Below are positions 1 through 34,065 of a DNA stretch of 64,000 nucleotides, piece after piece. The notes beneath the pieces are model-generated. The model saw only the letters and a list, made by a program, of their open reading frames with translations. It had not been told where the DNA came from and did not search any database. This DNA is from Chiloscyllium plagiosum. Its lineage: Eukaryota. A program made the position numbers and the translations under genes. The stretch is taken from contig NC_057755.1 in assembly GCF_004010195.1 (NCBI RefSeq), positions 9,888,891 to 9,952,890 on the forward strand. Reading direction: 5' to 3'. The first letter of the stretch is position 1. Every line of letters starts with the position of its first letter.

Positions 1-410
1 GTAGGACTGGTCCAGGTTAATCATGTGGGCCAGCATGGAAGCCAGGCGAGAAGACAACGCCCTGGCGAAGATTTTGTAGTCCGTGCTGAGGGAGACTGGA
101 CGCCAGTTCTTCAAAGAATGATGACCACCCTGCACCAAGAAAGGGGCAGCTCTCTGGCATTAAGACACTCCCCCAGGACCTGTGCATAGTCGCTCTCCAG
201 GATGTCCCAGAATGCCCTGAAGAACTCCACAGTCAGCCCGTCCAGCCCCGGGGACTTGCCCCTCGAGAGCCGATCAAGGGCGCTGGTCAGCTCCTCTAAG
301 GTGACCGGAGCATCGACTCTTCCTGTGCCCTCCGGGCCGAGCTGCAGCAGGTCCTCCCACAGCACTCGCCGAGCATCCTCGCTGGACGGATCCTGAGAGA
401 ACAGAGCCGT
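1..410 (-). mobile_element. Tx1-like non-LTR retrotransposon, 5'-truncated ORF2 fragment (start of RT), continuing off the window edge
   Basis: ORF 111..365 has 'LTSALDRLSRGKSPGLDGLTVEFFRAFW', followed after a frameshift by 'KNWRPVSLLSTDYKIFARRLSSRL'. These are L1/Tx1-type RT N-terminal motifs, and the stretch is GC-rich. Confidence 0.85.
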
Positions 411-950
411 ATATCTTTTTTATCTTTTTTTTTATTTAACCCCCACACTACCACCTAAGTGCGGTAGTGCTTATTTTTTTCAAACCTCTTGTTTACTTTT
501 TTTTCCTTTTTTTTATTAACCCCTACACTACCACCTAAGTGCGGTAGTGCTTATTTTTGCCCCAGCACCCATGGTGTGTGTGTGTGTGCGCAGGTGTGAG
601 ACACAGTGAAAGACACAAAGTGCACGAATCTTTATTTTATTTTTTTATTTTTTTGTGGTCCACGGACTCCACAGCGCCATAAGCCTACTGCACCTGGTAT
701 TCCCAAGCGGTCTCCCATCCAAGTACTAAGCAGGCCTGAGTCTGCTTAGCTTCTGAGATCAGACGAGATCTGGCGTTTTTTTTTCAGACTAGTATGGCCG
801 TAGGTCACTCCTGTTTCTTTTTTTTTCTTTAACCCCACACTACCACCTAAGTGCGGTAGTGCTTATTTTATCCCCAGCACCCATGGTGTGTGTGTGCGCA
901 GGTGTGAGACACAGTGGAAGACACAAAGTGGACGAATCTTTATTCAATTT
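411..950 (-). repeat. Three tandem copies of the Tx1 3' terminus (stem-loop plus A-rich tail)
   Basis: CACTACCACCTAAGTGCGGTAGTG occurs at 446-469, 526-549 and 838-861, each next to a T-run (poly-A on minus). The ~125-nt unit extending to GAATCTTTATT is repeated at ~518-636 and ~830-944. Confidence 0.9.
681..805 (-). pseudogene. 5S rRNA-derived sequence (pseudogene or SINE3 head)
   Basis: The reverse complement reads ACCTACGGCCATACTAGTCTG-A9-CGCCAGATCTCGTCTGATCTCAGAAGCTAAGCAG...TTAGTACTTGGATGGGAGACCGCTTGGGAATACCAGGTGCAGTAGGCTT. This is a full-length vertebrate 5S with recognisable A and C boxes, an expanded A-run and no TTTT terminator. Confidence 0.93.
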
Positions 951-2551
951 CCACCACCCCGAAGATAGGAAAACACCCGGGTGGCCAGTGACAAGCACTG
1001 CCCTTCACATCAAAGGGCAATGCCATGTGATCAAAACAGTGAAGGGGAGGGGAGGGACTAAATCAAAATAGAGTTGGAGGGAGAAATAATGCACTCCACT
1101 CCCTGCGGCGCCCACCTCTCCCTGATAAACTCCAGGGTGTTGGTGGACATCGCGTGCTCCTTCTCCAAGGACACCTGGGCTCTAACGTAACCACGGAAGA
1201 GGGGCAGGCAGTCAGCCCTAACGACCCCCTCCTCGGCCCGCTGCCTAGACCTGTTAATGGCCAGTTTGGCCAGACCCAGGAGCAGACCCACGAGGAGGTC
1301 TTCAGACCTGCCCTCCCTCCCTCCGTACCAGGTGCCCAAAGATCAGGAGCGTGGGACTGAAGTGCAACCAAAAGCAGAGGAGGAGGTTTTTCAGAAAATC
1401 AAAAAGGGAGTGCAAACACTCACACCCAATATACACATGCTCCACAGCACCACAGAACAAGCAGTTGGGCTGGGAGTCCGTGAACCACCGCAACCTGCGG
1501 TTGCAGGGGACTACTGCGTGCAGCACCCTCCACCCCAGATCCCCGAGAGAAAGGGGGAGGACTTCCGCATAGAGAGCCCTCCACTGGGGATCACCACCGC
1601 CCGGTGGCAAATGGGCACGCCAAGGAAGAAGAGGTGGATGGTGTGCAGCAGCAGTCTATACAGGGCCCGCCTTTTTACATCCTTAAAAGAAACAAAATTA
1701 AAATTCCAGGGGCGGCTCAGGTTGTGGGGCACAGGCTCCCACGGGAAGTACGGGACGTTGGGGCCAATGTGAAATTCCATCCGGGCTGGGGGTGAGCGCT
1801 GACGGGATCCCACCGCACACCTGAGCGTCCTCCAACTGGTGCACTACGTCGGGTCCAAGCACCGCCGTTTTAAGGCGTCGGATGGCGGTGGCCACGTACC
1901 GGACGTCTACCGCTGCCCTGCTCGCTATGTCCAGTGGTAGCGTCCAGCCCAGGCCCCCAGCACCCAGCACGTCCCCGACCCTGGTCACCCTCACCGCCGC
2001 GGCCCTCCCCTCCGACAGCCACTCGAACCAGCGAGTACGGAGGTGCAGATTCCTGAGCAATGGCTCCCTGATGACAGCCGCTACTCCTGCCGGAGGGTAG
2101 GCGCGACGCGATTCGACCATGCTCCAGACATGGATCAGGTCCTGGTAAAAGACAGGCGCGTCTTGAGGGCGACCTCCAAACCATCACGGTCGACGAACAG
2201 GAGCTGCGTGTCGTAGTTGAGGTTACGCACCTGGCGGAAAAAATACATCGCCAGGGCGCACCACATAGGAGGAGGCTCGATGTAAAGGTATAGCTGCAAG
2301 GTCTGAAGGTGGAACGTCGCGACCTGGGTGCGGACGCACACCAGTGACTGACCGCCCTCCTCAATAGGGCGACTCAGGACCTGCGCAGTGACCCAGTGCA
2401 TCTTTTTGTCCCAGAAGAAGTCGACCAAGGTTCTCTGGATGTCAGCGACAAAGCCAGGAGGGGGGACCAAAGTGACCAGCCAGTACCACAGCATAGCGGC
2501 CACCAGCTGGTTTATGACCAGCCCTCGACTCCTGTAAGATAGCACTCGGAG
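815..2551 (-). mobile_element. Tx1-like non-LTR retrotransposon, 3' part of ORF2 (frameshifted) plus 3' UTR
   Basis: Overlapping minus ORFs 2135..2545 (LSYRSRGLVINQLVAAMLWY...DFFW...EEGG), 1698..2120, 1302..1610 (DLGWRVLH...CLFCGAVEHVYIGC zinc finger) and 1058..1339 (LLLGLAKLAI). AATAAA lies at 944-939. The element is cut by the gap. Confidence 0.9.
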
Positions 2552-3051
2552 NNNNNNNNNNNNNNNNNNNNNNNNNNNNNNNNNNNNNNNNNNNNNNNNN
2601 NNNNNNNNNNNNNNNNNNNNNNNNNNNNNNNNNNNNNNNNNNNNNNNNNNNNNNNNNNNNNNNNNNNNNNNNNNNNNNNNNNNNNNNNNNNNNNNNNNNN
2701 NNNNNNNNNNNNNNNNNNNNNNNNNNNNNNNNNNNNNNNNNNNNNNNNNNNNNNNNNNNNNNNNNNNNNNNNNNNNNNNNNNNNNNNNNNNNNNNNNNNN
2801 NNNNNNNNNNNNNNNNNNNNNNNNNNNNNNNNNNNNNNNNNNNNNNNNNNNNNNNNNNNNNNNNNNNNNNNNNNNNNNNNNNNNNNNNNNNNNNNNNNNN
2901 NNNNNNNNNNNNNNNNNNNNNNNNNNNNNNNNNNNNNNNNNNNNNNNNNNNNNNNNNNNNNNNNNNNNNNNNNNNNNNNNNNNNNNNNNNNNNNNNNNNN
3001 NNNNNNNNNNNNNNNNNNNNNNNNNNNNNNNNNNNNNNNNNNNNNNNNNNN
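2552..3051. other. Assembly gap (500 N)
   Basis: Run of N characters. Confidence 1.
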
Positions 3052-6865: not shown

Positions 6866-8049
6866 AGTTAAATCCGCAATAACACCTCTGCAATTATATT
6901 CTTAAGAAACACAACATGTATGATTTGTAATTTAAAAGTCTGCAACACTAGACTCCAATGAAATAATCTCATAGTCTTGTCTTCGAAGCGTGTAGGAATG
7001 ACAGAGGATTGTGATCTGTGTACACAACCGTCTCCCGTGCATTGTTCATGACGCACACATTAAATTGTTGTAAGGCCAGTACCAACGTCAACAGTTCTTT
7101 TTCGTTCATGGAGTATTTCCTGTGGTGGATGTTGAGTTTCTTTGAAAAGTAACCAACTGGCAGTTCAATCCCATTGTATAGTTCCAATTCCCATGTCACT
7201 AGCATCAATGGCAACTTTAAGGAGTTTCAAAAGGTTTGGTGCAGGTAAAACTGGTACGGTGGTTAATATTGCTCTTAAATGGTCGAATGCCTCCTGGCAT
7301 TGTTCTGTCCAACCAAAACTTTGTAGTGTTATTCATCAAGTCAGTTAACGGTGCCACTACACTGCTGAAGTTTGGGGCAAACTTCTGATAGATTCTGCTT
7401 CGACCAAAAAGTCGAAGCACTTCCTTCTTTGAGGTTGGTCATGGAAATTGCTTGACGGTCTTCGCCTTTGCATTCCATGGGGTCAACCTTCCATTACCGA
7501 TATTATGTCCCAAGAATGTCACCTCTGCTTTTGAAAATGCAAATTTGTTTGAGTTCATTAACAGTTTTGCTTCTTGTAGTCATTCAAAGAGCTCTCCAAC
7601 TGTACCATGTGATCTTTTCAGGAATGACTAAAGATCACTGTATCATTCAAATATATTGTACAGTTTGTTTACCCAGCCAGAACTCTGCTCAGAAGTCTTT
7701 GAATGTGCCGGGTGCATTCTTCATTCCAAAGGCCGCATCACTTTGAATTGATATATTGAATTGGGGGTACAGACGCAGAAACCTCTTTCACTGACTCTGA
7801 TTAAAGCACCTGCTAATAACCCCGCAGTTAGTCCAACTTGGTGATGTAACTGACTTGTTCAGCTTTCTCGATACAGTCCTCCAGTCTTGGATATGAGCCC
7901 CATTTTTAACAGTGTTGACCTTCTGATAATCCATGCAAAATTGTTGAATCCTATCAGGTTTGGGAACTAAGGCAATCAGCGAACTCCACTTGCTCCAACT
8001 CAGTACTTTGGTACCCTCATTGAGAGCATACTGTCAGGATTACCCGAAT

Positions 8050-8558
8050 GATTAGATTAGATTAGATTACAGCGTGGAAACAGGCCCTTCGGCCCAACAA
8101 GTCCACACCGACCCGCCGAAGCGCAACCCACCCATGTCCCTACATTTACCTCGTACCTAACACTACGGGCAATTTAGCACGGCCAATTCACCTGACCTGC
8201 ACATCTTTGGACCGTGGGAGGAAACCGGAGCACCCACTGGGCGGCACGGTGGCACAGTGGTTAGCACTGCTGCCTCACAGCACCAGAGACCCGGGTTCAA
8301 TTCCTGCCTCAGGCGACTGACTGTGTGGAGTTTGCACATTCTCCCCGTGTCTGCGTGGGTTTCCTCCGGGTGCTCCGGTTTCCTCCCACAGTCCAAAAGA
8401 TGTGCAGGTCAGGTGAATTGGCCGTGCTAAATTGCCCGTAGTGTTAGGTAAGGGGTAAATGTAGGGGTATGGGTGGGTTACGCTTCGGCGGGTCGGTGTG
8501 GACTTGTTGGGCCAAAGGGCCTGTTTCCACACTGTAAGTAATCTAATCTAATCTAATC
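8050..8558. mobile_element. Inverted pair of HE1-like tRNA SINEs (3' half on minus 8050-8236; full copy on plus 8239-8558)
   Basis: A box TGGCACAGTGG and B box GGTTCAATTCC, with (CTAAT)n tails pointing outward at both ends. Confidence 0.92.
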
Positions 8559-11136
8559 ATTGAGCATGGCCTCTATCACCTTTGGACTTCTCTGGCTTTG
8601 AAAGGATTAAGCTGATAGAGGTGTTGTTTTATCAGAACGGTATTCCCTACATCTATTTCATGTACAATGGCATTAGGCCTCCACATCTGATTCCTACATA
8701 TGTCCTCAAACTGCAGCAACAAACCTTTCAACTGCATTCTATGCTCCTGAGACAGATAGTTTAGTAACCTATCCCACTCCTCAAGAACTTCTTCATTGTT
8801 AAACATATTTTGAGGCACATCAAAACCTACAACATCTGGATTTGTTCCTCACTTTGCTGGGTCACAACTAACACCCATTTCTGCAGTTCTTCCTCTAGTA
8901 TAATATGGCTTCAGCGTGTTCGCATGACATACCAGATACAGGTTTTTTCTTTCTATCTGGCATCTTTCGGAGATAGCTCACCTGACTCAACTTCTTCCCA
9001 ATTTCATACGGACCATTAAACCTGGCTTTCAATGTATCTCCTATCACCGGTAACAGTACTAACACATCATCCCTTCTGGAAAACCTGAGTCTCAGTGGTT
9101 TCATTTCCACCTGCTTCAATTAATGCTGTGCCCTTTTTCGGTGCTGTTCAGCTAACTCACCTACTCGACTTAATCTCTCCCTCACCACCAATACTTAATC
9201 TAAGTATGGAATCTTCCACTTTGGTCCTGGCAATTTCTCTTTAGTTAATTTCAAAGGGCCTGTGACTTCATGCCCGGATATTAACTCGAAGGGAGACACT
9301 GAATAGATTCATTTGAGGTATCTCTAATGGCAAATAATATGATACCTTTATCCCAATCATTCGGGTCATCCTGCCAGTATGCTCTCAACATTGTCTTCAA
9401 CCTTTCTAAAGCTCGCTGGGATTCAGGACGATATGTACTTGATTTGCATACTTAGGTTATCCACGACTTACATCAACAGCCTAGAAGTAAAATCAGACCC
9501 TTGTTCCGATTGAAACTCCCTGGATAGCCCATACTGCATGCACAAAGGTGCTGACTCCTCTACCAAACCTTTTTGCTTAATACCCCATAATGGATTGGGC
9601 TTCAGAAATCTGGTAGACACATCCATTATGGTTAACAAGTTGTGGTTTCCACTTTTAGATCTTGGGAGGTGACCGACACAATCAATTACAACCCGCGTGA
9701 ATGGGTCTTTGCATGAATTCACAACAAAGGTGCTAGTTTTATTACAACCTGCAGCTTACCGACCAATTGGCACATATGACATTTAAGGCAAAAGTTAGCC
9801 ACATCCTTATGCATTCTAGGTTTTTGTACCTTAACCTGAGTGTTTCGAACACCTAGGTGACCTCCTGCAGGTAGTTCATGTGGTACCCATAATACTCTCT
9901 GTCTGTGTACTACTGACAGCACATCTGGTGCACTTCGGCCATTTCACCTGTGCACTTACCATTTCTGTCTTAGGATTCTATCTTTCAGATAATAACCCTC
10001 AGGAATATTATTTGCCTCCTTTTCGGAGTACACATCCACATATATATTTTTTATTGTCTCGTCTTTCTGTTGTAAGTCCACCAGCCTTTCAGGACTGAGC
10101 ACTTCTCTCTGACTCTCTGCCTATTCAGGGTTTTCCTGCACAATTGCATCAAGCAGGGTGACCACTAACTGAACCTCAACTTCTTCGTCTTTCTCTTTAG
10201 TTTTTGCTTAATGCTGTGGCTTATGATAGTGGGATCTTGTTAGTACACAGTCTGGGAAAATACCAGGATTTTTTTTTTTAACTCCTCAGTTTCTTGGTCT
10301 TCCTTGTGCTTCTCCACAACATAGGGTGTCTCTCCCATCTTGCACACTACAAATTCATTCACAAGAACAAACTGGATTCCTGGAACTGACACTCTGTTAA
10401 GCACTCCCACTGTTACTCCCACACTTTTGAGTTGACACTCCATTTTAATTTTACATAGGGGAACACTAAATTTCTGTCCCCCTATCTCAGAAATTATCAC
10501 CATCTAGGATAACAGATCAGAAAAAGTGCAAATTCGCTCCTCTCTGTGTTAGGCACTAGTTAGATCCCGTATCTCTCAAAATTATAACTACTTTCCTTTC
10601 TGCCCTGCTCTTTCTGAGTAAACTTTACCCATAGAGGCGTATTCTTTACGGAGATCAAGTACAAACTTCATACATAGCCCCTGCCGAAGTTGTGCACTCT
10701 CCGGCAGCTCCTCGGCTCTTCTTGAGGTTTCCTTTACTTCTTTCACTAATGCCACTGGCTTAGCTTCATTTCCCACATTGCCTTCCTTTAACAACCGGCA
10801 CTGTGGTTTTACATGTCCCACTTTACCACAGTGGAAACACCTGAGGCCTTTCACCTCCTTTCCACCCTCTTGGGCTTGTTTTTGTTTTAACCTCTGGTAA
10901 ACTCTTACCAGTGTGTTCTACACTTTGTTACATAGCCTAGAATCTCCAGTTCTCCCAACTTGCATCCCTAACAGGATGAAATTGCAGCCGGAAGCTTATC
11001 TTATTCACCAACATGAATTCATCTGCTAACGCTGCTACCCTTCTTACTTCATCAACTTGTTGTTCCGCCAAGTGAATTCTTATCATCTCTGGAAATGGGT
11101 TTTTAAACTTCTACAGCAGAATAACCTCTCTTAGAG

Positions 11137-17216: not shown

Positions 17217-17440
17217 AAAAGCAAATTACTGCAGATGCTGGCATCTGAAACCAAAAGAGAAAATGCAGGAAAATCTCAGCAGGTCTGGCAGCATCTGTAA
17301 GGAGAGAAAAGAATTGACGTTTCGAGCCTAACTGACCCTTTGTCAAAGCTTTGGCAAAAGATCAGTTAGACACGAAACGTCAGCTCTTTTCTCTCCTTAC
17401 AGATGCTGCCAGACTTGCTGAGATTTTCCAGTATTTTCTC
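17217..17440. mobile_element. Palindromic Penelope-like pLTR derivative
   Basis: 92-bp arms (17257-17348 / 17349-17440) with no loop. Begins with the CTGCAGATGCTGG motif shared with the Penelope ends at ~55170 and ~58200. Confidence 0.8.
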
Positions 17441-33885: not shown

Positions 33886-34065
33886 GAGAACGTGAGGACT
33901 GCAGATGCTGGAGATCAGAGTCAAAAAGTGTGGTGCTGGAAAAGCACAGCTGGTTAGGCAACATCCGAGGAACTCCTGATGAAGGGCTAATGTTCGAAAC
34001 GTCGAATCTCCTGCTCCTCGGATGCTGCCTGACCGGCTGTGCTTTTCCAGCATCACACTTTTTGA
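33886..34065 (+). mobile_element. Hairpin Penelope-like pLTR derivative with a hammerhead-like core in the loop
   Basis: Arms 33921-33971 / 34015-34065. The loop contains CTGATGAAGGGC-TAAT-GTTC-GAAACGTC (33976-34003). Confidence 0.8.

Follow-up and report, generated by a model that had tools for sequence, protein, structure and literature searches.

A full-length 5S rRNA copy joined to Tx1 LINE sequence in the shark Chiloscyllium plagiosum is very probably not part of an amplified SINE family, a conclusion that is independent of the caveats raised below by assembly gaps, by target site duplications (TSDs) and by one sibling copy, C1. Probably, the chimera was born at another place in the genome, C7, and was re-copied at the present locus by read-through (3' transduction), with the 125-nt Tx1 tail behind it being a separate insertion. 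The locus lies at the start of a 64,000-nt stretch of DNA (NC_057755.1, positions 9,888,891 to 9,952,890), here called the window, to which all positions refer.

The fusion sits inside a head-to-tail stack of Tx1 pieces on the minus strand of window positions 1-2551. Upstream of the 5S lies the C-terminal ORF2 region and 3' UTR of a frameshifted Tx1 copy (831-2551), which is cut by a 500-N gap (2552-3051) and is 86-91% identical to other Tx1 copies over 600-1070 nt; this element would have been the carrier of the read-through transcript. It ends in a 14-nt A-tail (817-830), and an identical tail precedes the 5S of a further sibling copy, C10. Next come a 13-nt TSD of the LTR TATA-box type, in a minority AG variant native to the C7 array (806-818), the full-length sense 5S copy (681-805), which ends in TT without a terminator, 26 nt of Tx1 ORF2 from the C-terminal zinc-finger-like region of a 5'-truncated LINE partner (655-680), and an A-run (635-654) with which the chimera ends 151 nt after 5S +1. 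This A-run would be the poly(A) of a transduced transcript. It is followed by a 5'-truncated Tx1 3' end with AATAAA, stem-loop and A-tail (496-636), likely a separate insertion, by a target-site word between units that is unlike the C7-type word (481-495), by a third Tx1 end comprising the last ~45 nt and an A-tail (411-480, tail 472-438) and by a fourth Tx1 fragment from the RT region (1-410), which continues beyond the window edge; all of these features are on the minus strand. About 1.3 kb outside the window, the stack terminates at an LTR right half, beyond which comes decayed pol-like sequence. This LTR may be of Gypsy type, judging by eye from its anatomy and from an integrase (rve) match beyond the stack that is weak and below the Pfam cut-off (E 0.0025). 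A Tx1 3' end preceded by an A-rich join was seen in 1 of 50 contexts examined. Tandem Repeats Finder reported no repeats in window 1-3000, and a search of sequencing runs found 20 runs from 8 studies containing part of positions 600-900, none with at least half of its words (best 0.47), which is uninformative for the junction. Elsewhere in the window, self-comparison revealed palindromic or inverted-pair repeats at 8047-8561, 17257-17440 and 33921-34065.

Much of this layout had been recognized in a preliminary description of the sequence. Its full-length 5S ending in TT was confirmed by an Rfam match (RF00001) to positions 805-682 that covers the entire model with 86 bits (gathering score 38), and the absence of TTTT that it reported for 805-481 extends even to base 1, with zero runs of four T on the minus strand. 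The ~26-nt linker and the A-rich run were located at 680-655 and 654-635, and the terminus described as common to the adjacent Tx1 was indeed found to be 89% identical over 141 nt (642-502 against the upstream Tx1 end, 950-814). Compared with one spacer-flanked 5S of the same genome, the window 5S has a 5-nt A-run expansion and five substitutions. Taking the promoter box positions from the Xenopus internal control region (ICR), which we assume to apply here, box A is unchanged and the intermediate element and box C carry one substitution each. The word upstream of the 5S was also considered as ordinary 5S 5' flank or spacer and rejected, as both spacer-flanked 5S types have different flanks. 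The second of these types (L021/L175), with other flanks and two copies on a 2.7-kb contig, is probably the remnant of a collapsed rDNA array.

The linker matches the genome exactly at five places, three inside ordinary Tx1 copies and two after the present 5S variant, and it joins an A-tail at one of the five, the window itself; such exact-pattern counts are blind to diverged or unassembled copies. It lies in frame within the ORF2 C-terminus, a region with 46% identity to X. laevis Tx1 ORF2 across 158 aa, and the RT piece of the fourth unit reaches 63% identity to the same protein. From the identity figures of sister copies, we place the LINE partner in the Tx1 clade, closest to the Tx1L-type RT and C-terminus with target-specific insertion. 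Pfam gave no match in 4 of 7 fragments, including both frames from the upstream Tx1 of the window, a weak zf-RVT match below cut-off in the linker region (E 0.008) and an RVT_1 match on the continuation of the fourth fragment (E 3.5e-12). Readings of the linker as 5S spacer or as a new SINE body were discarded, its sequence being Tx1 ORF2. Because the linker is LINE coding sequence, the primary structure is a 5S joined to a Tx1 truncated within ORF2, ~650 nt from the Tx1 end.

The word upstream of the 5S, CAGGAGTG, is the TSD that this Tx1 family makes at LTR TATA boxes. A 32-mer of the Tx1 tail has 2,228 exact genome matches, a lower bound on tail copies. When the first 30 of these matches were grouped into 17 clusters, LTR sequence adjoined 12 of the 17 versus 0 of 34 control loci, within the span inspected. 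Tx1 was found directly after the target word at 3 of 20 LTR sites, these being the first 20 with an exact TATA-region 20-mer. Genome-wide, LTRs carry the AG form of the word 220 times versus 1,869 times for the common form; in the loci inspected, the core 11-mer occurs in 15 distinct contexts, six with AG (C7 four times, the window and C10) and nine with AT. Units of the family stack head to tail at one LTR site with an A-tail and the target word between them; as described for R1 (PMC2718515), such stacks grow via re-insertion at the duplicated target word. Because stack ends elsewhere carry stubs of foreign flank with a second A-run and word behind them (judged by eye; 2 of 9 contexts in one set), 3' transduction appears to be usual for this LTR-targeting family. 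Separately, units within one stack often have a common 5' breakpoint and differing 3' ends (L046-L050, L066-L067, L072, L073-L074, L045), a pattern that local re-copying or homology-guided second-strand joining may explain.

The A-expanded 5S head has nine matches in the genome. A changed first base and the upstream word are common to four of them, namely the window, C7, C1 and C10; the other five are unrelated fusions, for which reason the A-run expansion was dropped as sole diagnostic. Two further diagnostic 5S patterns yielded no additional member beyond these four places, one diagnostic pattern giving 3 real matches versus 1 for its reversed control, and a match at C19 was set aside as an unrelated 5S/tRNA-SINE fusion. 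In C7 and C1 the 5S runs on into Tx1 where the window has its A-run, and TTTTT occurs at +184, before the tail. Runs of five T terminate Pol III. Because of this run, a Pol III transcript of the parent unit could not, as predicted from sequence, reach the Tx1 tail. At C7, the intact left half of an LTR stands directly before the 5S with the word in its AG form, which recurs three more times downstream and is therefore native to C7. C7 is the only copy that starts at 5S +1 behind a native target site; in the window and C10, an A-tail and a foreign AG target word lie upstream of +1. The C10 insert, 120 nt long and with private differences, is bounded by a 14-nt TSD of its own that is unlike the AG word; within it lie the same A-tail and AG word, then the first half of the 5S and an A-run. 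Relative to 5S +1, copies end at ~+54 (C10), at +151 (window) or with the whole unit (C1), and the window 5S differs from that of C7 by one substitution and one A. C1 and its upstream Tx1 piece are enclosed by one 16-nt TSD; its 5S is identical to that of C7, its Tx1 differs at 3 of ~70 bases, its junction is different and its upstream piece stops 52 nt short of the start of the downstream piece. It may be a gap-filling artefact or hybrid, leaving three real copies. A 3.6-kb gap directly follows the 5S-Tx1 unit in the C7 array, and the window, C7 and C1 copies are all at or near assembly gaps. Since the internal promoter of 5S cannot yield RNA of the sequence upstream of +1, the window and C10 copies would derive from read-through RNA of a C7-type array.

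Fusions of this kind were surveyed across the genome, which contains 143 exact 5S 3' ends. Two patterns that exclude the spacer-flanked 5S types returned 36 and 5 places, and all 41 were inspected; the survey sees copies with an exact 5S 3' end, leaving truncated or antisense fusions uncounted. The partner was a tRNA-type SINE, which we take to be HE1, in 20 cases, Tx1 in eight, a full U6 in one, inverted repeats that we presume to be Penelope-like in two, other LINE-like sequence (by eye) in four, spacer in four and other sequence in two. An HE1 family is on record in the accessible part of PMC3747384. The eight Tx1-joined ends use six different Tx1 breakpoints and, set against the 2,228 exact tail matches, are a small minority. 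Varied breakpoints and diverse partners are the signature of independent small-RNA/LINE chimeras, and two of the 20 SINE fusions are identical, flanks included. The left half of the LTR stands upstream in 4 of 6 Tx1 junction types (one being the reference copy) versus 0 of 20 SINE fusions. One TSD surrounds both 5S and LINE parts at L081, L083 and L100, and C7 is consistent with this; the words proposed by an automatic TSD finder for L078, L089 and L102 were unconvincing. Each of the six Tx1 junctions coincides with the natural 3' end of the 5S, with 1-5 T, and four of them carry an extra A without counterpart in Tx1 copies, while one junction has none; the A at the window junction is ambiguous, as 3 of 12 other Tx1 copies have A at that place. 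The extra A hints at adenylated 5S ends as acceptors of a template jump. Mono-adenylation of Pol III RNAs is described for human cells in accessible passages of PMC12811392, in which 5S itself does not figure.

Several other 5S-derived loci were observed along the way. About 19 distinct 5S/tRNA-type SINE fusions show mixed junctions and ages, several with A-runs at the join (L075, L077, L084, L086, L088, L091, L092, L094-L097, L099, L101, L104, L106-L108). A three-part fusion at L080:1396-1530 consists of a 5S 3' end, a full-length U6 and a LINE end, and at L087 and L093 (~1400-1522) 5S copies sit in the middle of the presumed Penelope-like inverted repeats. An independent 5S/Tx1 fusion at a non-LTR site (L037/L082/L083:900-2100) forms a tandem duplication whose units agree in their junction and in which the target word is repeated; it has kept its T5 terminator. 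The same 10-nt deletion, between two short direct repeats near the 5' third, recurs in many retroposed 5S copies (L077-L079, L093, L094, L097, L102-L104, L107, L137); their partners vary, several have expanded A-runs, and the recurrent deletion reflects either RT slippage or an expressed variant.

Four steps could account for the window locus. First, Tx1 units pile up at an LTR site in the manner observed above. Second, reverse transcriptase would run off a 5'-truncated Tx1 RNA within ORF2 and continue on the 3' end of a mature 5S RNA, a mechanism that we infer from the observed junction and that would yield a 5S followed by ~650 nt of Tx1 3' end; the alternative is prior ligation of the two RNAs. 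Third, transcription of a Tx1 lying upstream of such a unit would read past the Tx1 tail into the target word and the 5S; the RNA would receive its A-tail 151 nt after 5S +1 and insert at the present locus by 3' transduction. Fourth, a short Tx1 end would insert at the A-tail and create the look of a SINE with 5S head and Tx1 tail. The 5S would accordingly be cargo rather than promoter. A template-jump chimera was among the options of the preliminary description, and the ORF2 linker and the six varied Tx1 breakpoints support it. We favour a jump onto the 5S 3' end over ligation, to which the six junctions add a hint, because RtcB ligation requires a cyclic phosphate (accessible text of PMC6789731) that is normally absent from 5S; adenylated 5S as acceptor would distinguish the two routes. 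Some features of the locus speak against the four-step origin. The junction of Tx1 tail, target word and 5S is absent from the assembled C7 and could only be in the 3.6-kb gap there, the window insertion would have its far TSD on the other side of a gap, and the target word after unit 2 is absent directly after the A-run at 635-654.

The same gaps leave room for an assembly mis-join, in which the 5S-linker segment belongs in the C7 array and was stitched here via shared Tx1 tails. We consider this unlikely. The window contig ends at a gap 1.7 kb away, its tails share exact stretches of 33-49 nt with assembled units of C7, where a gap follows the 5S-Tx1 unit, and C1 resembles a gap-fill hybrid; however, a mis-join would require two jumps, the window 5S is not identical to that of C7, and C10, with its clean TSD and private differences, shows real re-copying of the junction. 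Rather improbable, too, is an RNA-free transfer in which ectopic recombination or gene conversion moved the block of A-tail, target word, 5S and 26 nt from C7. On either side of the block lies Tx1 tail sequence, of which the genome has at least 2,228 copies, and no TSD of the block's own is demonstrable in the window, but the block ends in an A-run where its siblings have coding sequence, and the TSD and A-tail of C10 are typical of an RNA route.

We give a very low probability to a nascent SINE3, that is, a terminator-free window copy transcribed by Pol III from the 5S through the Tx1 tail and mobilised, or about to be mobilised, by Tx1. Box A is intact, no T4 run intervenes, a Tx1 stem-loop tail and A-tail follow within ~320 nt, and Tx1 mobilises snRNA-headed SINEs in crocodilians according to the accessible part of PMC4494074. 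This resembles the preliminary description's option of a Tx1-mobilised SINE3, which fared poorly. An exact linker search found the 5S-linker-A-tail junction to be single-copy, the variant occurs at four places only, the siblings have TTTTT before the tail, two copies include sequence upstream of +1, and the intermediate element and box C are changed. There is a similarly slim chance that a SINE was caught at birth: truncation would have removed the internal Pol III stop of the chimera, which would then have acquired a Tx1 tail again. If true, one locus would hold an element that has a 5S head, is driven by Pol III, can be mobilised by Tx1 and is aimed at LTR TATA boxes; it would amount to a SINE3 partnered by Tx1, its precursor stages being visible in the same genome. 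This pairing was not found in print in the literature searched. Mutsu is a Tx1 family that targets 5S rDNA. That a genuine 5S locus was repeatedly hit by a Mutsu-like, 5S-targeting Tx1, a further option raised earlier, is scarcely credible, for although Tx1 sequence flanks the 5S on both sides and 5S rRNA appears among Tx1 targets in the legend to Fig. 3 of PMC4494074, the part of that source available, the 5S is uninterrupted, neither flank is one of the genome's two 5S spacer types, the family targets the LTR TATA box, and only 8 of the 41 surveyed non-spacer 5S ends (143 exact ends exist) touch Tx1.

A separate, young dispersed family of 5S genes was encountered in the same genome. Members pair a 1.1-kb LINE 3' fragment with an entire 5S gene in antisense orientation to it, the gene retaining its T5 terminator as well as downstream flank and ~330 nt of flank upstream (L004-L019, L023-L030, L103, L113-L115, L136, L137, L158-L174; for example, L013:200-1950). 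The LINE fragment has RT-family matches in cartilaginous fishes and is presumably CR1, judging by its motifs. Compared with the reference L018, the match reaches the same LINE tail at 39 of 48 sites with 94-98% identity, while the other end is variably truncated, and tandem pairs have a period of 1,665 nt. Sites were sampled from the top matches of one search plus 17 picked from the 143 exact 5S ends; by extrapolation from part of them, ~100 of the 143 may be of this kind. Apparently, a 5S rDNA repeat has been scattered through the genome when an antisense read-through RNA was retrotransposed by LINE activity. Our literature search found no description of a dispersed CR1-linked 5S family, and rDNA specialists may find some 100 intact 5S genes, dispersed with a CR1-type tail, of greater interest than the 5S/Tx1 fusion.

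Comparison with known systems, as far as the accessible parts of the cited accounts go, places the window fusion among small-RNA/LINE chimeras. SINE3 elements (zebrafish SINE3, AmnSINE1, OS-SINE1, Ped-1; PMC3747384) similarly combine a 5S-derived 5' part with a LINE-derived 3' end, yet the LINE partners listed there are CR1, RSg-1 and BovB, whereas the shark partner is Tx1. Unlike SINE3, the shark fusion has no amplified family, no shared tail junction and a Pol III stop in its parent unit. Of the features that define SINE3, a 5S head with ICR is present, while amplification and a start at +1 with its own TSD are lacking; a Tx1 tail is present in the window, but after an A-run that the siblings C7 and C1 lack, and the terminator between head and tail is absent in the window copy and present in C7 and C1 (TTTTT). 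Such an internal T-run would explain why most fusions of the 5S/Tx1 type stall, and the fusions illustrate the raw material thought to give rise to 5S-headed SINEs.

The crocodilian SINEU and U1/U2-headed Tx1 families, together with Tx1-8_Crp and Tx1-4_AMi, offer a further parallel: Tx1 gains small-RNA heads by template switch, and some Tx1 families prefer LTR retrotransposons (accessible parts of PMC4494074). The same source proposes transcription from upstream flank for the crocodilian elements, and uses varied breakpoints and a LINE outnumbering its chimeras as criteria for independent template-switch products. SINEU, as described there, differs in having hundreds of copies and no LINE sharing its tail, whereas the shark Tx1 tail outnumbers the chimeras hundreds to one. 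As in the tandem R1 elements of Drosophila, where a LINE re-inserts into its own TSD to form head-to-tail stacks and transcripts often include downstream flank, the Tx1 family stacks at its target; R1 belongs to another clade and targets 28S rDNA, and the available account mentions no 5S cargo (PMC2718515).

The closest likeness is to the U6/L1 and 5S/L1 chimeras of mammals (accessible parts of bioRxiv 10.1101/2025.02.02.635956 and PMC6789731), in which a small RNA and a LINE 3' end with variable 5' truncation arrive fused in one TSD-flanked insertion, and every junction marks a separate event. Judged by its direct same-sense junction, its varied breakpoints and its share as a small minority of LINEs, the window fusion appears to work like a U6/L1-type chimera, and the full-length sense geometry of the shark fusions matches U6/L1. 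The LINE is Tx1 here and L1 in mammals, and human 5S/L1 chimeras are reported as mostly truncated and antisense, whereas the shark fusions keep the 5S 3' end in sense, a feature for which our survey pattern selects. U6/L1 chimeras are reportedly non-self-propagating, whereas the window fusion was apparently re-copied as cargo. Going by the available parts of these sources, 5S/L1 chimeras, small-RNA-headed Tx1 families and LTR-preferring Tx1 are already published; no report of 5S/Tx1 fusions in sharks was found in the literature searched, whose limited coverage makes this a weak absence. To these known systems, the shark locus makes two modest additions, a whole sense 5S joined to Tx1 and the apparent re-copying of such a chimera as 3'-transduced cargo, and it provides a clear non-mammalian example of small-RNA/LINE chimeras.
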